64,000 nucleotides of DNA, from the NCBI GenBank assembly GCA_965197475.1, contig CBDANF010000003.1, forward strand, positions 2,912,001 through 2,976,000, in the 5' to 3' direction. The notes under the pieces were generated by a model. That model did not search any database and was not told where the DNA came from. It was given only the letters and a program-made list of their open reading frames with translations. The translations under genes and the position numbers were made by a program. Below, one piece after another: positions 40,901 to 47,885 of this stretch (its first letter is position 1; the number at the start of each line of letters is the position of its first letter). The DNA is from Candidatus Poribacteria bacterium. GTDB lineage: Bacteria; Poribacteria; WGA-4E; WGA-3G.

Positions 40901-42707
40901 TGGTGTTACTGCAACACCAGCGCATCTGTTTGTCGCAGATATTATTGACCAGAAAGTCTATTCATATCCGATCCCTGGTGTTACCGAGGTTGTTGTAACT
41001 GTAGGCGCGCCGAGTTGGAAGCCCGTGTCAATTCCCGAAGCAGTGAAAGGTTCCCATTGGACGCTCTCCTTAGCAGATTTCGTAAAAGGGGACCCAACGC
41101 CACAGATCTACTTTACAGACGGTTATACGTCATCTAACTGGCTTACGTTGCAAAATGGTGTGCTTTCAGGCACCCCTACGATGGCTAACACTGAATATAT
41201 CAAAGTTACCGCAACAAATAGTAAGGGAAGCGCAGACATAACAGTACCGCTTTCTGTGTCGCATTCAGAATATACATCCTGGGACCTCAACCCCGAAGAA
41301 ATTTATGTAAATACCATTGCCAGCACAGAAGAGTTTGTCTATGTGTTTTATGGGACCCAGAATAATATACCTCACATAAGTGCTTACACTCATGATGGAA
41401 TTCGCCGTCCGGATAAGGATATAAAACTTGGAACGGAACATAGAAAAGACTCACACAGCATTAACACCCACATCACCGCCTCTGAAACACATCTTTTTAT
41501 GGTGGAGACATATAACGATTCCGATGAATCGAATCCAACTGGTGGAAGAAAAGTCTATGTGTTTGACATTACAGGAACAGGCACTAAACGGCATTTTTTT
41601 CTAAGTAGGGAGGTAGGTATGTACACAGCGGAGATTGCTGCCACTACAACGCGCTTTTATGCAGTCAATTGGTCTGAAAGGAAATTCCATGTTTACGGAC
41701 ACGATGGAACACCTTACCCAAATGAGGATTTTACACTCAAGCCGCACGACACTGAAGGTACATTTTTTTTGGACGTAGCGACAACTGAAACGCGTATCTA
41801 CGTTTTGTTAGCAAAAGTGAATGGTTATGTTCGTGGTAAAGTTTTTGTATATGGGCATGATGGCACACCTTATCCTGACGAAAACTTCAACGTCGGTGAA
41901 GTAAAAACTGTAGATATTACAGCAACATCAACGCATCTGATGGCATATTCCGGTCCGTATCTTAGAGGCATAAATACCGGCTCTATTTTTTACTTCCCAC
42001 TTCCTGAGGCGGAAGGAAACACCGAAACAGCTGTTCATATCCAAGATACAACGCCCGCTTGGGATGTCAATCAGGATGGAAAGGTTGATATCCAAGACCT
42101 AATTAAGGTCGCACAGTATATTGATGAAACAGAACTTTCTAATCCACAAGCAGACGTAAATGGAGATGGAACAATTGATGTTCAAGACCTACTCATTGTT
42201 TCACAACATTTAGGAGAATCAGCTGAGGCAGCATCACCTATAAAAACAACTGCTTTGCGATTTCCTGCCCTTGTAAAAAACGTTGCAGATGGTGATGTCA
42301 CAACGGAACTAATTCAAACATGGATAGACCTTGCGCGGATTTCGGACGATGGTTCGCCTGTTTTTCAGCGCGGTATTGCAAACTTAGAACGTCTATTAGC
42401 TGAGATGCTACCAGATAAGACAGAACTCCTCGCAAACTATCCGAATCCTTTTAACCCAGAAACGTGGATACCTTACCATCTTGCTAAGGAAGCTGAGGTG
42501 CAAATTACTATTTACGATATAAACGGTGCTGTCGTGAGACAATTAGACCTGGGATTGAAACTCGCCGATAATTATACGGACCGTTCCCGAGCTGCTTTTT
42601 GGGATGGACGCAATGCTGATGGTGAGAAGGTTGCAAGCGGAATTTACTTCTATCAACTCCGTGCAGGCGGCTATGATCACACCCGCAGAATGCTTATTGT
42701 TAAATAG
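37917..42707 (+). CDS. Large secreted protein: beta-propeller repeats, Ig-like repeats, dockerin-like and FlgD-type C-terminal domains
   Basis: Signal peptide, GIAAT..R.YV.D repeats, three WL.L..GVLSGTP units, DVNQDGKVDIQDL/DVNGDGTIDVQDL, NYPNPFNPETWIPY, WDGRN...SGIYFY. Confidence 0.85.
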   Translation: MKKHIFRFAIFTLICLFFCMLSVEFVYAGIEASIILDIDLNENGLMRDIAATATRFYVLFAGRQPEIGGTSNSGSSYIRKVYVFDHEGTRKPDEEFEIDTELTPYSIAVTNKFIYISYWDSSGIDAYAFDGTRLHDEGLRYASAGQKSSIAATETHIYVSDVSYLDEVDIYKFKDTQGDLNARNVSWEKEFKLTTNESLRAFIAATDTRVYIQNPNDSTIYVYDTRDGGRRAREDFVHCLWTGLRKESIYVPSRYLSGITTTPLGGKLYMLISRSRDDGIEGRQLKVYRYSIPEENAARPEVFLPAKPPRRASYYFYLPPSGSGIAATDTTVYIGADGSRYFGRAATIHAETYSDGVPGSLFADAGKLRGNISVTYPHLGSSGMTVDYNNIYLLIRRASDVLTQEHNYAVRHCLLNSDGTIHGGKTTLRDLQLPLAMENFKNGIGLAIDSEGILYVMAAGENYKGPPLIYRYKPSLDSPQHSQALPGNPILLHPDHKAPCGITIVKNRAYVLDRAFITDEGTPRLYAKVFVYDLDAHDVFEYLPEESFLVNARIGNQTIIPYDSGIAVNGDTFFISMRAEWPSNYKHVLVYGPLAAPSWGPIRADTIQRRQPYGGDIRRMSIVATNGSDYYKYQAIEGIPWILSLDFDFVFGNPDPSITFKTGYKKPEWLTLKDGVLSGTPSSAGKLTIELTATNEQGSTDESITLNVGPGVVAPSWHDFSVPEIRIHDAWSLTLTDLVTGNPTPEIYFTQGYTPPDWLKLREGVLSGTPPKAGTYSIQVTAASALRRPGYVKWADIVIYLVVKGPTSPNWALDSMNDTAQGIAATDNRIYVTDLIDDKIYVYGHDGERYVAQDIDLKTLTENPIGITATVTHIYIVDNSEDIVSILDVTETGSVGNFKLDPDNRGPTGIAATARRLYVVDHEDDKVYTYAHDGTRHPTEDVNLHKHSEPTGITATATRLYVVDGDDDKIYPYEYDGKMKNSEIVELVTENRSPTGVTATPAHLFVADIIDQKVYSYPIPGVTEVVVTVGAPSWKPVSIPEAVKGSHWTLSLADFVKGDPTPQIYFTDGYTSSNWLTLQNGVLSGTPTMANTEYIKVTATNSKGSADITVPLSVSHSEYTSWDLNPEEIYVNTIASTEEFVYVFYGTQNNIPHISAYTHDGIRRPDKDIKLGTEHRKDSHSINTHITASETHLFMVETYNDSDESNPTGGRKVYVFDITGTGTKRHFFLSREVGMYTAEIAATTTRFYAVNWSERKFHVYGHDGTPYPNEDFTLKPHDTEGTFFLDVATTETRIYVLLAKVNGYVRGKVFVYGHDGTPYPDENFNVGEVKTVDITATSTHLMAYSGPYLRGINTGSIFYFPLPEAEGNTETAVHIQDTTPAWDVNQDGKVDIQDLIKVAQYIDETELSNPQADVNGDGTIDVQDLLIVSQHLGESAEAASPIKTTALRFPALVKNVADGDVTTELIQTWIDLARISDDGSPVFQRGIANLERLLAEMLPDKTELLANYPNPFNPETWIPYHLAKEAEVQITIYDINGAVVRQLDLGLKLADNYTDRSRAAFWDGRNADGEKVASGIYFYQLRAGGYDHTRRMLIVK

Positions 42708-42728
42708 TATCAAATGACCATAGGATAT

Positions 42729-42831
42729 CTGGAAGGTTGATGTTTATTGGCTTCCCAGCGATCATTAATGAGTGGGTTGCGTTGGGATCGCGAGCATCCT
42801 CTTTGAGAAATGATGCGTTTAGCGATAAACG
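42729..42831. ncRNA. Candidate structured RNA (four abutting hairpins) inside the DUF1670 element
   Basis: Hairpins at 42729-58, 42758-91, 42794-816 and 42816-31; strand ambiguous. Confidence 0.5.
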
Positions 42832-42838
42832 TGTCTAA

Positions 42839-42867
42839 AGTATAGCAAAACCAGTAGCGGTTGTCAA
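42839..42867 (-). promoter_or_regulatory. Near-consensus sigma70 promoter facing the left inverted repeat
   Basis: Minus strand TTGACA-N17-TATACT. Confidence 0.7.
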
Positions 42868-42934
42868 CCATATTTTCAAGGCACCTGCCCCGGTTTTGCG
42901 AAGTAAAGTTCGTCGGGAACATAGGATTAGGGTC

Positions 42935-43819
42935 TCATTGGGCTTCTCCTTGGTGAGTGGCTTCATCGTTTGAGTCTGAATTGGCAAGGTCTGCATCTAT
43001 GGCTTGGAGTTGGTGCTGCGGTATGAGGTCGAGATATTGAGAGATGACGCGTTTAGAAAGTCGTGTAATCTGTGAGATTTTATCAATATCTGCGGTTGCT
43101 TTCCGAACGACTTTGACGCTCTCATAATCGCGAATGTATCGGTCAACTGCCTCCTTAGAGTGTTTGGTCTTTGCGGCAATCCTGGGGGTGAGATGTCCTT
43201 GAAGATAGAGGGTTATGATCTCTTTCTTATGGGTAATAGCCCCCGATAAGTCATGGATATTGCCACGGGTGGGCAAGAGTTCTCCAGTGGTTTTTTGCCA
43301 TTCATTAACATAATCACAGACAACGGCATCGCAGACATTGAGCAAAACTGCCAAGTCGAGTTGTGTCAATAATGCCCCTTGGTCATAAGCTTGATGACAC
43401 CAGCGGACCAAGCGATTGATCCGCAATTGCCGGGAGGTGAAACCGTTGCGAAAGGATTCAATATCCTCTGCGGCGAGGTAAGTCAGGATGACGGGTTTCA
43501 TGCGGGTTTTGACGATGGACTTTCCTCTTTCTGGATGCTCTTCAATAGGGACAGCCATCCAAACGAGGTGTCCATAGCTCAGCAGCCGCTCCTCTGGGAG
43601 TGCGTCACCAGTGGCGAGTTTCTCCAAAGGAAGGGTAATCACGAAATAGTCCTCAACGGTCTTAAGAATATCATCAACAATAGCTGTCGCCGTGACTTCG
43701 CCTTTGTCATAACCGTAGTCATTGAGAAAGCGATGGATCAGCAACTGTCGTAGGGATTTATCGTTGATGCGTCTGAACTTTTTCTCGTTGATTTGGGTGC
43801 GCGTCAAAGGTTTGCTCAT
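42935..43819 (-). CDS. DUF1670 domain protein B
   Basis: QAYDQGALLTQLDLAVLL, PTRGNIHD..AITHKKEII, HSKEAVDRY. Confidence 0.8.
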   Translation of the reverse strand: MSKPLTRTQINEKKFRRINDKSLRQLLIHRFLNDYGYDKGEVTATAIVDDILKTVEDYFVITLPLEKLATGDALPEERLLSYGHLVWMAVPIEEHPERGKSIVKTRMKPVILTYLAAEDIESFRNGFTSRQLRINRLVRWCHQAYDQGALLTQLDLAVLLNVCDAVVCDYVNEWQKTTGELLPTRGNIHDLSGAITHKKEIITLYLQGHLTPRIAAKTKHSKEAVDRYIRDYESVKVVRKATADIDKISQITRLSKRVISQYLDLIPQHQLQAIDADLANSDSNDEATHQGEAQ

Positions 43820-44623
43820 CAGAGTTCCTCCTTTTTTTTCTCCACGGGCTCTGGGTGAAGGAGTTGGGTCATGCGATCGGTGTGTTGATATTCCTCGGAC
43901 AGCGAGAGATACTCGCGGATCAGCCGGTCAGAGAGATGAGTGATGAGTGATGAGCCGTATCTGTGCGTTAGGAAAACCTTGATGATGGAGCGTGGCGACT
44001 TGTATTAAGTCCCTCAAGTAGCGGTAGACGGCCCGTTCGGAGTGGTTCGTCTTTTGCTCAATCTCGGTGAAGGTGTATGCTTTGAAGGACAACTCAAGAA
44101 TCTGCGTCTTATGAGACAGTCCCGGGCCCATGTCGTGTTTCGCCCCGCGCGTCATCACGAAATAGCCGGACTGCTTCAACGCTCGGATGTCGCGTTTGAC
44201 GGTGGCAGGACTGGTAGTTAATAACACTGCCAAATCCTCATAACTCAGCAAGGCATCTTGGTCATAAGCTTCTTGGGTCAATCGGAGGATCCGATGCCGT
44301 CTGAGACCTGCGAGCCCATAAGTCGCTAAAACTTCAAGGTCGGCTTCAACATCGTTGAGTTTGAGTCGACAGGAAACTTTTTTCGCTAAAGCGATGTGTT
44401 TGCCTGCGGGTTCCTCAGCGGCGACTGCCTCATAGCAGATTTGCCCTGAGGTAAGTTGCACATCGGCGTGCTGTTCAAAGTAGGTGGAAATCTGTTTATA
44501 GTAGGCTTCAGCAACGAGAGGCATTAGATTAAAGTCTGCTGAAATCTTCTGAATAATAGCGGCTCTGGCATTCTTGGATTCCAGTCGATTGATACCGTAG
44601 GCGGTATCCTTCTTACGGTCCAT
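43819..44623 (-). pseudogene. DUF1670 domain protein A, C-terminus frameshifted
   Basis: EAYDQDALLSYEDLAVLL, TRGAKHDMGPGLSHK, HSERAVYRY; 7-bp tandem duplication near 43935-54 shifts the frame; reconstructed stop overlaps gene B start (TGATG). Confidence 0.75.
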
Positions 44624-44757
44624 ATTGACCTCCATGAAGAAAGTGTCGGCGATGCAAATACATCTACCCGTTAGTTTAACGAATACTAATAGTATAACTC
44701 ATGGGGTCATTTGATACAAACTATAAGTAAGTTGAAACCTATTTCCTAAATATATGC

Positions 44758-44782
44758 GTAGGCGCGCTTTGTAAGCGCGCCT
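44758..44782 (+). repeat. GTAG-type REP palindrome
   Basis: GTAGGCGCGCTTTGTAAGCGCGCCT; similar copy at ~2831-2852. Confidence 0.7.
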
Positions 44783-44804
44783 CTCACAAAGGATAAAACA
44801 GCGT

Positions 44805-45212
44805 TTAGACTCTGCTTTTGCCGAACAATACACCTGCAAGATTCCGTGGTCTGCCACAACGCCCTATCTGAATTAGTAAACGCTAACGAATTGCAGTTGG
44901 GACAATTTGAGCGATAAATTTCAAACTGTTTTCCAACTTTTCGATTGCCTCTGATTCGCGAGCTGTCCCACTCTTGAGTTCAATCGAAACTCCCACAAGA
45001 TTATTTTCAGTTGGAGAAATAAAAAAGAGAAGTCGGTCACACCTTTTTTCAGTTTTTTGGCGCAAATCAAACTCATGTTCAAGATTTACAATCACCCGTT
45101 CGGATGGTATGTCATCCATGTCAACATTGCATCCTTCTCCACTGCATGCATCAACTAAACTACCTGTATTAAAACGTGCACGGAGTTCACCAAGAATTCT
45201 ACTCTGATTCAC
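44805..45212 (-). pseudogene. Small PD-(D/E)xK-like partner of the ATPase, with internal stop
   Basis: KRCDRLLF...SIELKSG; frame continues past TAG 44883 to TAA 44805. Confidence 0.5.
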
Positions 45213-47885
45213 GCTTAGTGTTGCCTTTCATTTCTTCAAGTCGATTTTGTAGACGTGCGGAACGGTTGTAAAGGTCCTCAGCGACATCCAAATATTCCAT
45301 CGGTTCAACGCCGTCAATACGATTGTAAGGTATTTCTTCCACCTTTCCATTTTTCTGAAAATGCCAAATTCCAACTTGTTCTGTCTGAAGAGAAGTCGGC
45401 AGGTCGCTAACTTCCTGCCCTGCGTTCTCAAGTTCTCCTGCACGTATCAGATTCCCTATTTCCTGAAGTAACCAATCGCTATGTGTTGTTATTATTATTT
45501 TCACGCCTGCCCGAACTAAACGTGCAAGAATGACTGCCATGCCTGCTTGGGCACCCGGGTGTAGGTGTGCCTCCGGTTCTTCAATGATCAGCGTATCACC
45601 TGGCTGTACAAGACTTCGGAGATATAGGACTAAGGGCGCAAGTTCAGATACCATTGAGGAAGATTGGCTGAGACGAAATTCTTCATTAGTGCCTTGTGGT
45701 AAATAACGAAAGTCCGGATACCCACTCGCTGAAGGTTTTAAGCGTATCTTTCCAGCAAGTACTTCAGTTTCCAAAGTTTCAGAATGTTGTTTCATCTCAG
45801 CATTCGGTTTTTTTGGTTCTTCGTAAAGGATAATTTTTTCCATAAAGTCTGCTATCACTCCTGACATAGTGGGAACCTCAGGAAAACGTTCGAAACCTAC
45901 TCGGGTTGATCGCTTTACAAGCGAAGTTGCTATCACTCGATGACTTTGCATGATGCCGCTCCGGGCAGCAGGAAGGTAGTAACGGTTTCCTCCATTTTTG
46001 ATGTTTCCCTTAAAACCATGTATTTTTTTTACTCCGCTTGTCAGTTCAACTCCCCAATCTCCGCTAAAAGTGAAATTAAAATTACCTTCACCTTTCCAGT
46101 CTGTGGAGATTGCCAATCCCTCAGGAATAAGAATCATAGTCTCGTTGAATGAACTATTAAGGATAACATCTGATTCAGATGTATTTAACTTGATACTCCA
46201 ACCGTCTTGCTGTTTTTCATCAACCATCAGTGAAACAGTCATTTCATTTTTTTCTCCCGTTGTCAATCGTCTTAATTCCAAAATTGCATCAAAATCATAA
46301 CAGTTTTTGAGTTCAGACTGTAGTTTGTCCCCAAAAACCTCTGCATCATCAATAATTGTCTTTAAGAGATCTCGTAGTTCTGTTGGAAAATCTAACAATC
46401 TAAAGGCCCCTGTCACTGGTGTTTAGTTTTTTGAGCACATCCTGAACTTTTTGCTTTGCTGATGGACTCGCGTTTGTCAAAACAAAGTTCTGTAAAGCAT
46501 GTAAAATACCTACAATCCCTTGGAGCCCAGATGGAAATAGAAGTTGGGGTTCTGTCATATCCGGAAATACACCGTACAAGGCGTACACCAGCGTAGAAAA
46601 ATAAGTTTTCGGAATAAGTCGTTTTGGACTTGACAAAAGTTGGAAAAGTGCGCTAAACCCTTGTAAATAAAGGGTTTTCATAGTATAATATCAGTAAGAA
46701 AATAGGGGGTATCAACCCCCTATTTGAAACTCAAAAAAGCGAGTTGCTTTTCTGGTTCACACTTATCTGATATTGTATCAGAAACTATCAGAAAAATGCA
46801 ACTCCAAAAAACAGGAGTGTTTTCTGATGGATTTAATCAAGGTGATGAAGACGTTCTCAACGCAAGAGGATTGCATCGAATATCTGGAGCGGCTCCGATG
46901 GAAAGAATCGCCAGAATGCCCGCATTGTCCAAGTCTAAACGTCCGAAGGCGGAACGAACACGAGGTTGGGCGTGTCGGACGCTGGAACTGCCACGATTGC
47001 CGTGCTACATTCAAGGTGACACACGGCACAATATTTCACGGCACGAAGATACCGCTCCAAAAGCGGTTTCTCGCTATCGCTCTCATGGCAAACGCAAAGA
47101 AAAGTTTGTCCTCCCATCAACTTGCGCGCGATTTAGGGATGAAACAGAAAGCTGCTTGGTGTCTAATGATGGCTATACGCACAGAGATGGGAAAGGATAA
47201 TGTCCTACTACAAGGGGTCATTGAAGCAGATGAAACCTATATCGGTGGTAAGCGTCGCAAAGACTATGACCGGGAGGATGGTGAACCCCGTAAACGCGGA
47301 CGCGGCACCGCTAAAGATGCCGTGCTGGGCGCAGTCGCACGTGGTGGACACGTCATCGCACAACTCGTATCCAACGCCACTGGTGAGACGATCTCCGACT
47401 TCATCAACAGATTCGTCAATACCGAAGATTCTGAACTCATTACCGATCAGTATAGAAGCTACAACGAAATCGGTAAGGAAATGAAACATGAGACACTTAA
47501 CCGTAGTGAGAAATGGGAGGCTGGCGACATCCATACCAATACGATGGAAGGCTTTTGGTCTTTCGTCAAGAGGGCATGGTATGGACAACAACACCACTAC
47601 TCAACAAGATACACGCCCCTGTATCTCGCAGAGGCAGGCTATAAATATAACTACCGAGAAACCAACATCTTTGAGAAGTTTCTCACCGAAAGTATAACGT
47701 GAGAAATCTGAAAAATAAAAACTTCCAAGTCCAAAACGACTTATTGCGTAAGTTTTTCCTGTATTACTGGGACCAACAAATACCGTCAACGGGCGCAAAT
47801 CGATATTGGCTTCCGCAATAGGTCCAAAATTCTCAACTGCAATTTCAACCTTCGGCTGCTCTTGTGTGTCTTTGACTTCGCTCAT
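45199..47885 (-). pseudogene. ABC/AAA_15/21-type ATPase interrupted by IS1595 and a frameshift
   Basis: ENFGPI..GPSNTGKTY rejoined to FSTLVY across the IS; YLPAARSG, SSMVSEL, IEEPEAHLHP, TTHSD; extra G near 46406. Confidence 0.85.
46610..47748 (+). mobile_element. IS1595-family insertion sequence (transposase 46827-47702)
   Basis: Inverted repeats CGGAATAAGTCGTTTTGGACTTG / CAAGTCCAAAACGACTTATTGCG; 8-bp target duplication TAAGTTTT (46602-09, 47749-56); CPHC, EADETYIGG, HTNTMEGFW. Confidence 0.94.

Follow-up and report, generated by a model that had tools for sequence, protein, structure and literature searches.

A putative outward promoter and conserved hairpins at the non-coding end of a site-specific mobile element carrying two DUF1670 genes in Poribacteria

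The locus and its mobile element

The DNA considered here comes from a Candidatus Poribacteria bacterium and was analysed as a window of 64,000 nucleotides (contig CBDANF010000003.1, positions 2,912,001 to 2,976,000), to which all coordinates below refer. The stretch of interest is the 227-nt spacer at 42708-42934, between a plus-strand open reading frame (ORF) that ends at 42707 and a convergent minus-strand ORF that ends at 42935 (Table 1). It makes up the left (3'), non-coding end of a site-specific mobile element that is active, lies at 42704-44724, is 2,021 bp long and comes with two paralogous DUF1670 genes (A and B), terminal inverted repeats and a 2-bp AA duplication. A putative promoter on the minus strand, called P_out here, sits downstream of gene A and points to the element tip, and the hairpins, which lie just downstream of this strongly conserved promoter, are probably made as a small structured RNA. 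A preliminary description of the same DNA had placed four hairpins with dedicated promoters at the end of a DUF1670 element and had interpreted them as an element-encoded RNA loosely resembling the bridge RNA of IS110. Its observation was partly confirmed in our analysis, including the identity of the element end, and its interpretation is partly supported.

Table 1. Features of the element end, the element and its host gene, in window coordinates.
Feature	Position	Strand	Details and basis
Host ORF, 1616 aa	37857..42707	+	C-terminal type IX secretion sorting domain
Target duplication AA, left copy	42702..42703		Occupied versus empty sites
Left terminal inverted repeat ATAGTATCAAATGACC	42704..42719		Inverted-repeat search and junctions of 20 copies
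Hairpin 1, extended	42724..42763		Lower stem 42724-42728/42759-42763, upper stem 42729-42738/42749-42758; ~15 pairs
Hairpin 2 of the preliminary description	42758..42791		Alternative to the lower stem of hairpin 1; 145/240 cells Watson-Crick
Conserved unpaired linker ATGAGTGGGTTG	42768..42779		Near-invariant columns T66, A68, G69, G71, G73-T75
Hairpin 3 complex	42787..42826	-	Outer stem 42787-42791/42822-42826, middle 42794-42798/42812-42816, inner 42800-42802/42806-42808
Hairpin 4 of the preliminary description (CGTTTA/TAAACG)	42816..42831		Window's subfamily only; competes with the outer stem of hairpin 3
Predicted transcription start	42832..42835	-	4-7 nt downstream of the -10, from spacing
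P_out	42839..42867	-	-35 TTGACA (42867-42862), 17-nt spacer, TG-extended -10 TATACT (42844-42839); scan
DUF1670 gene A, 294 aa	42935..43819	-	PF07900, E 7e-61
DUF1670 gene B, 235 aa	43928..44635	-	PF07900, E 8.4e-55; HTH_11, 5.2e-08
Right terminal inverted repeat GGTCATTTGATACAAACTAT	44705..44724		Inverted-repeat search and junction alignment
Target duplication AA, right copy	44725..44726		Followed by the original G TAA of the host gene

A segment of 251 bases around this stretch has 20 occurrences, 90-100% identical, in the genome from which the window comes, and a BLAST search of 42600-44850 against that genome returned 18 full-length copies, one internally deleted copy and one short derivative (C3:94103-94563, which retains 42690-42857 and 44433-44728). 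The 20 copies are 91.8-97.2% identical to the window copy. Several pairs of copies are 100% identical to each other and lie in unrelated flanks, and therefore the element has moved recently. The tips were set by aligning the junctions of the 20 copies, whose flanks differ; they form imperfect inverted repeats, and the left repeat is the same in 42/42 aligned ends, one variable column aside. The element thus shows the features by which insertion sequences are recognised, namely multiple copies, defined ends, inverted repeats, a target duplication and genes of its own. An occupied site reads ...GTTAA[ATAG...CTAT]AAGTAA, with the element in brackets, and unoccupied relatives of the host gene end in ...GTTAAGTAA. 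It follows that AA has been duplicated and that the element provides the third base of the last Lys codon together with a TAG stop (42704-42707), so that the host protein is unchanged. The AA is found at both junctions of occupied sites and once in empty sites, which fits a 2-bp crossover core equally to a 2-bp target duplication.

Such elements turned up in records under seven phylum-level names, namely Poribacteria, Gemmatimonadota, Ignavibacteria, Bacteroidetes, Zixiibacteriota, Eisenbacteria and Verrucomicrobia. Full-text literature searches for 'DUF1670' and for 'PF07900' found no paper, and it is apparently an undescribed mobile element. An Rfam scan of 42000-45500 with E values up to 10 gave three matches (E 2.7-9.9), all far under the gathering score and none within 42720-42867.

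The outward promoter and the hairpins

P_out is the strongest and best-supported feature of this element end. It lies where the preliminary description had placed it, matches the consensus at 11/12 positions and carries TG before the -10. Five promoter-like sites were counted in 42500-44900, of which P_out scores highest, and shuffled sequences gave 3.1 +/- 2.0. Conservation was counted in 53 distinct left ends, the two most distant being excluded. The -10 TATACT is present in 53/53 of these and the TG before it in 52/53, while the -35 is exactly TTGACA in 40/53 and agrees at five or more of six positions (>=5/6) in 50/53, one of the three exceptions being the deletion derivative, which has lost the -35. 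The spacer measures 17 nt in 34/53 and 18 nt in 18/53 ends. In the left-end alignment, where mean column identity is 64%, the columns of the -10 are invariant, and P_out is retained in a subfamily with a left end ~33 nt shorter, in which a different hairpin replaces hairpins 2-4. At the level of the sequence P_out therefore has what is expected of a sigma-70-type promoter: a -35, a spacer of 16-18 nt, a -10-like hexamer and retention in relatives. Transcription would begin a few nucleotides downstream of the -10 (Table 1) and proceed to the left, taking in the stems and then the terminal repeat. A second promoter had been proposed on the plus strand, in which TTGATA of the right repeat would be paired with a -10-like TAGGAT when the ends are joined in a circle. 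This proposal did not hold, since the two hexamers lie 27 nt apart when the ends are abutted and TAGGAT becomes GATGAT or CATGAC in homologs.

The four stems first drawn are all in the sequence (hairpin 1 at 42729-42741/42746-42758, hairpin 2 at 42758-42791, hairpin 3 at 42794-42816 and hairpin 4 at 42816-42831), but as a four-hairpin structure the drawing had to be abandoned, only hairpin 1 and an enlarged hairpin 3 being conserved. Hairpins 2 and 4 are not conserved features; hairpin 4 is Watson-Crick paired in 164/240 cells, with 31 A-C and 35 other mismatches. Hairpin 1 has a 10-nt loop (GATGTTTATT, 42739-42748) and its main helix is paired in 83.7% of cells. Taken alone, it folds with a mean z of -3.24 on the plus strand and -3.43 on the minus strand in 43 distinct sequences. 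Its stem has been rebuilt after indels, as in one end (L061) with three extra bases in the 5' arm, where the pairing is now GGAAACC/GGTTTCC, and another end (L104) has GTGC/GCAC against TAGC/GCGA in most others. Column entropy is 0.41 in the loop, and 0.49 and 0.57 in the arms. The linker that follows resembles the inner right inverted repeat (CCATGAG) when compared by eye. What had been called hairpin 3 is the middle stem of a longer, irregular hairpin 3 complex, in which 80-89.5% of cells are paired per helix and the CG pair at columns 93/131 becomes AU in seven sequences and GU in two.

A structure drawn by hand from single-sequence folds and the alignment was scored on 40 distinct rows. 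It has 83.4% of its cells paired, compared to 80.3% in shuffles (0/500 as high) and 30-46% with slid partners, and changes on both sides of a pair were seen in 33 cells against 19 expected. Additionally, the region between hairpin 1 and P_out folds above shuffles on the minus strand only (mean z -1.95 vs -0.67, 33 sequences), and this is the strand that P_out would transcribe.

The stretch had also been described as non-coding, which agrees with our results as no conserved ORF was found in it. A 70-aa minus-strand frame (42710-42922) is open in the window, and otherwise in its close subfamilies only; in most other ends it is broken to 26-41 codons, and single-base indels separate the subfamilies. 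It could be thought that this frame encodes a small protein, or that the stems, lying between two convergent ORFs, are the terminators of the two genes. We find both extremely unlikely: the frame starts upstream of P_out, is open in near relatives only and has no Pfam match, and terminator-like sites (a stem followed by a T run) numbered zero on either strand.

A more serious alternative is that hairpin 1, perhaps with other inverted repeats, is a cis-acting feature of the DNA and that the P_out RNA has no function of its own. The hairpin could then be a binding site for the winged-helix DUF1670 proteins, or it could be extruded in single-stranded or supercoiled DNA and so unite a terminal repeat that is split in two. 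The stability of hairpin 1 is the same on either strand, without wobble bias, and the sequences on its two sides, TATCAAATGACC and ATGAG, adjoin each other in the right end (TGACCCCATGAG). It is retained in the only short derivative of the genome, a small form in an RNA-library contig keeps 42703-42758 and the right tip, and decayed miniatures at secretion-tail genes in two other genomes (G035 and G026) keep a repeat-adjacent hairpin with other loops. Both DUF1670 proteins are, furthermore, built from helix-turn-helix modules. However, a role in the DNA leaves unexplained why a near-consensus promoter aimed at the stems is conserved in 53/53 ends and why the promoter-adjacent stretch folds well on the transcribed strand only. 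The arms are variable with partial compensation and the loop is at least as conserved, which is unlike a duplex binding site for a dimer. We consider a DNA-level role without a functional RNA rather unlikely.

Host genes and target sites

The host ORF of the window copy ends in a type IX secretion tail, as do most genes at which the element is inserted: Pfam finds Por_Secre_tail (3.4e-07) and a dockerin in its last 399 aa. Target choice was examined in 84 distinct sites, pooled from named-genome loci, the copies of the window's own genome and 11 loci from relatives. From the 80 named-genome loci 65 were parsed automatically and 15 were skipped; 16 loci were inspected by eye, among these 14 of the 15 skipped ones, and 3 were without a left end. 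In 71/84 sites (69 by rule and 2 by eye) the element has entered the final Lys codon of a gene with a type IX secretion tail and has rebuilt the Lys codon and stop; these ORF ends are of the type ...RKMLILK-stop. Of the other sites, six are in a palindrome, within its loop, and seven elsewhere. The orientation of insertion is fixed, the element being always head-on behind the stop codon of the host gene. In the window's own genome (G000), 13/29 secretion-tail ends that follow the strict pattern are occupied. The same type of ORF end and the same terminal repeat were recognised by eye in Gemmatimonadota, Eisenbacteria, Zixiibacteriota, Ignavibacteria and Bacteroidetes, as well as in unlabelled bins and metagenome contigs; the Verrucomicrobia record has lost its left end.

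The second target is a palindrome resembling repetitive extragenic palindromic (REP) sequences, AAACCGAGTTTTGAAGAAAAAACTCGGTTT (GAAACCGAGTTTTGAAG AAAAAA CTCGGTTTC), with the insertion in the loop, and the same logic of AA duplication holds there. Genome G035 contains this palindrome 70 times and G026 contains it 34 times, and many of the copies form tandem clusters with a spacing of 150-350 bp. A protein search of metagenomes with the L113 protein gave 11 loci only, which included a seventh palindrome insertion (L156) and three distant secretion-tail insertions. We considered whether the palindrome is a disguised secretion-tail site, and rejected this. Against the secretion-tail position weights, the five palindrome insertions in register rank in the top 4-21% of random AA sites and that of L109, read one base out, at 63%, which is a poor match and makes the palindrome a separate target class. 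Genomes G035 and G026 hold full copies in palindromes and decayed miniature copies at secretion-tail ends too. At four such loci (L147, L149, L153 and L155) an AAATAG secretion-tail end is followed by a decayed or miniature copy with the terminal repeat and the adjacent hairpin and no genes.

Some minor observations concern the host gene and unusual copies. The product of the host gene of the window copy is a repeat protein in which dockerin and EF-hand motifs precede the secretion tail, and the gene has internal 129-nt repeats. One locus (L098, reverse-complemented) reads as a right end, then AA, then a degenerate left end (ATAGTATCAAATAACC), and is the sole string of this order in the DNA examined; a tandem arrangement, or a second insertion into one and the same AA, could account for it. 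Two loci from one genome record (L089 and L104) share an altered left tip (TATCACTACCATATGACC) and an identical 40-nt flank before it, which suggests a duplicated or rearranged copy and not two independent insertions.

A possible role for a proposed outward transcript

We give an even chance to the reading in which the left end combines a promoter-driven, structured non-coding transcript of the minus strand with a cis-acting end hairpin. The P_out RNA would be ~130 nt long and consist of the hairpin 3 complex, the C-rich linker, hairpin 1 and the terminal repeat, and it would probably continue into the flank. Hairpin 1, adjoining the terminal repeat, would at the same time behave as a cis-acting part of the end. 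As the element is always head-on behind a host stop codon, read-through from the host gene enters it antisense to genes A and B. Transcription from P_out, together with the stable RNA, would meet and pair with this read-through and so shield genes A and B. In an excised circle or a tandem copy, where the ends are joined, genes B and A would be transcribed from P_out over the junction. Given the head-on landing, the most economical role for the transcript would be to meet the read-through and to drive B and A across joined ends, and this read-through or junction role takes up roughly half of the confidence that we place in the reading as a whole. We infer the use of the promoter and the role of the RNA, and the mechanism rests on geometry. 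An element-encoded RNA, as first proposed, is the natural reading of a dedicated and very well conserved minus-strand promoter. Among the 20 listed sequencing runs 14 are RNA libraries, and in 4/4 runs examined metatranscriptome contigs span the stretch and both junctions, with left flanks that read like secretion tails.

Several results weigh against such an RNA. The contigs from RNA libraries show presence only, because DNA can occur in RNA libraries, and they tell nothing of strand, ends or level. Contig ends at 42702/42703 and 42860/42867 fall at points of divergence between the copies, and no weight is given to them or to depth. A circle or tandem junction was absent from the RNA-library contigs of the 4 runs, and only a single junction-like string (that of L098) was met among all DNA examined. 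Neither strand has a terminator-like site that would set a 3' end for the P_out RNA. RNAalifold gave essentially no consensus structure for 42 homologous ends (3 pairs per strand), a null that is partly due to MAFFT placing bulges inconsistently and for which the hand-drawn structure was scored instead. Pairs with a both-side change number 9 in that structure versus 7.5 in shuffles (93/500 as high). Covariation across homologous ends, which had been named as a check of the stems, is thus modest by counts of cells and not above shuffles by counts of pairs, and the sequences are close kin. The preliminary description had further seen a preference for the plus strand, with two stems extended by G-U pairs. 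Departures of the G-T and A-C type are equally common (hairpin 1, 48 vs 42; hairpin 3 complex, 35 vs 32), which speaks against that preference; hairpin 1 accordingly shows no sign of selection as an RNA of one strand and could act as DNA. Finally, the hairpins and the promoter are limited to the Poribacteria clade of the elements, and relatives in other phyla have different, shorter ends.

Could P_out be an ordinary outward promoter of an insertion sequence, with the stems as neutral leftovers of inverted repeats and no discrete functional RNA? The fold of the whole 227-nt spacer is not unusual (z -1.86 on the plus strand with 9/200 shuffles as good, and -1.37 on the minus strand with 18/200), and this agrees with such a view, as do the RNAalifold null, the poor conservation of hairpins 2 and 4 and the weak covariation by the stricter measures. 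It does not account for hairpin 1, which survives indels and substitutions in 43 distinct versions with z ~-3.3. In addition, the fixed orientation points P_out antisense into the 3' end of the host gene, and a neighbour would not be switched on. A promoter without a functional RNA is therefore clearly unlikely in our judgement.

Hypothetical guidance by the transcript

The analogy to IS110 implies that the RNA would choose the target. Under this explanation the DUF1670 proteins would use the P_out RNA as their cofactor, and a loop, or the flank into which the RNA is read, would pick the site by base pairing. The layout is compatible with it, as the non-coding end would give rise to a structured RNA that starts from a strong promoter of its own and runs through the tip, and the DUF1670 proteins have no recognisable catalytic or targeting domain. 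Targeting is also extremely precise (71/84 sites), with a second target class in some lineages. The loop of hairpin 1 matches the informative target positions ATGnTnAT, and ends with the loop CGTGGTTAYT are mostly from the palindromic repeat (6 sites, with 1 in a secretion tail and 1 elsewhere), these ends being close kin from genomes that hold the repeat.

Behaviour of a target guide was nevertheless absent in the tests made here. Matches between loop and target, by position weights and by the best 12-mer, were at chance level and were rejected. The left end and its own target had a best match of 9/12 in every pairing tried, which shuffles equalled in 68-87% of trials. The resemblance of ATGTTTATTG in hairpin 4 to ATGCTTATTG in the flank, noted in the preliminary description, is real and lies at this same chance level, its best 12-mer being 9/12 and equalled by shuffles in 68% of trials. 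A correlation between loop and target across copies, of the kind suggested as a test in the preliminary description, was not found. In their first 100 nt a secretion-tail insertion (L093) and a palindrome insertion (L107) agree at 96%, and they share one loop; the loop of L113 is of the usual type and yet this copy is inserted in a palindrome; and L094 and L103, with the loop GATGAATAGT that mismatches an invariant target position, are at secretion-tail sites. Elements of other phyla that have no hairpins insert at the same codon. For a guide templated by the flank, the relatedness of elements was compared with the similarity of their flanks, which gave rho 0.04 (permutation p 0.37) in 18 copies, a comparison of low power, and the flanks of identical copies are 40-67% different. 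We regard guidance by the P_out RNA as very unlikely.

The DUF1670 proteins

Proteins A and B are paralogues with ~35% identity, and ~1,540 protein relatives exist. The Pfam matches of both genes are restricted to DUF1670 and helix-turn-helix families, with no recombinase or nuclease domain in 42704-44724, and NCBIfam, PHROGs, PADLOC and the ESM Atlas gave nothing past a helix-turn-helix likeness. The AlphaFold model of protein A has a pLDDT of 84.6 from an alignment of 77 sequences. When compared to the Protein Data Bank (PDB) with Foldseek it had no matching fold (best E 0.29), only helix-turn-helix pieces, and a profile search of PDB sequences gave 0 matches. In the same alignment, with a mean column identity of 31%, His197, His220 and Tyr228 are the sole invariant residues, and R139, D190, K198 and Y262 are nearly so. 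These residues are candidates for catalysis, in a protein without a known catalytic fold. The region around His197, His220 and Tyr228 may resemble the box II motif of tyrosine recombinases. Four longer proteins (P0133, P0135, P0142 and P0145; 930-952 aa) have three DUF1670-like stretches each, and look like fused triple forms of the family.

A further possibility is that the P_out RNA is an obligatory partner of a new recombination machinery formed by the DUF1670 proteins, hairpin 1 and the hairpin 3 complex serving as a scaffold. By means of this scaffold the proteins would recognise both the element end and the last codon of the secretion tail, or the palindromic repeat in some lineages. We hold this to be quite improbable; if true, site-specific insertion with the help of an RNA would have a second example, unrelated to the first.

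Comparison with known systems

The bridge RNA of IS110 and IS1111 also goes by the name seekRNA. The present element shares with these systems a structured-RNA candidate at a non-coding end, very precise sites that include palindromic repeats, and 2 bp common to both junctions, which here could be a crossover core or a target duplication. The IS110 bridge RNA is a structured non-coding RNA from the non-coding end of a small insertion element (PMC11208160). Unlike IS110, our element has no DEDD/serine recombinase by Pfam, Foldseek or the PDB profile search and has helix-turn-helix proteins of the DUF1670 family instead. Its loops match targets no better than chance and are unchanged with target class. 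A complete promoter of its own lies 3' of the genes, whereas the IS110 promoter is rebuilt at the circle junction. Together with the distant elements that lack hairpins and share the target, these differences do not support the analogy drawn in the preliminary description.

In IS10, an outward promoter near one end produces RNA-OUT, a short stable stem-loop RNA that overlaps and pairs with the 5' end of the transposase mRNA. A strong putative outward promoter near an end and stable predicted stem-loops are found here as well. In contrast to RNA-OUT, the P_out RNA would be on the genes' own strand and at their 3' end, and it is no more complementary than shuffles to the 5' region of gene B (p 0.76) or gene A (p 0.26). 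The omega RNA of TnpB and IscB elements is a structured RNA of the 3' end and the coding strand which reads past the tip into the flank. Our element is similar in that the candidate lies at its 3' end on the coding strand and the orientation of P_out permits reading through the tip into the flank, and it differs in that 42704-44724 contains no RuvC nuclease (TnpB/IscB) domain and a guide from the flank finds no support in the low-power comparison of flanks.

Tn7 inserts at attTn7 behind glmS, where the target is read via the conserved 3' coding end and the host protein is left intact. Our element likewise recognises a host gene by its conserved 3' coding end without harm to the protein, but its target is a gene family, the insertion is inside the last codon with the Lys codon and stop rebuilt, and the proteins are unrelated. 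Integron attC sites and the subterminal hairpins of IS200/IS605 are folded single-strand recombination sites. Hairpin 1 is comparable to these as an imperfect, end-adjacent hairpin with conserved bulges whose shape is better kept than its sequence. However, Pfam finds neither an integron integrase nor an HUH transposase, a preference for one strand could not be shown, and our element differs in its terminal inverted repeats and its 2-bp duplication.

Short structured RNAs at the ends of insertion elements have repeatedly proved to be regulators, such as RNA-OUT, or programmable cofactors, such as the bridge RNA and the omega RNA. Targeting in the present element is unusually exact and harmless to the host, as it takes place in the last codon of the secretion tail and rebuilds the Lys codon and stop. 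If the RNA takes part in transposition, this would be a new route to site-specific insertion; should it do no more than handle host read-through, the element would be a neat case of adaptation to a fixed head-on landing site. P_out and hairpin 1 offer clear experimental handles either way.

Neighbouring features

Just to the right of the element lies a minus-strand ORF (45199-46416) for an AAA_15/AAA_21 ATPase, which matches models of defence systems (PD-T4-4_A with 2.6e-27, NsnB, AriA and GajA-like). Further on, a 26-nt inverted repeat (46607-46632 / 47726-47751) is 92% complementary with 1,093 nt between its arms, and it may mark the ends of another small element.

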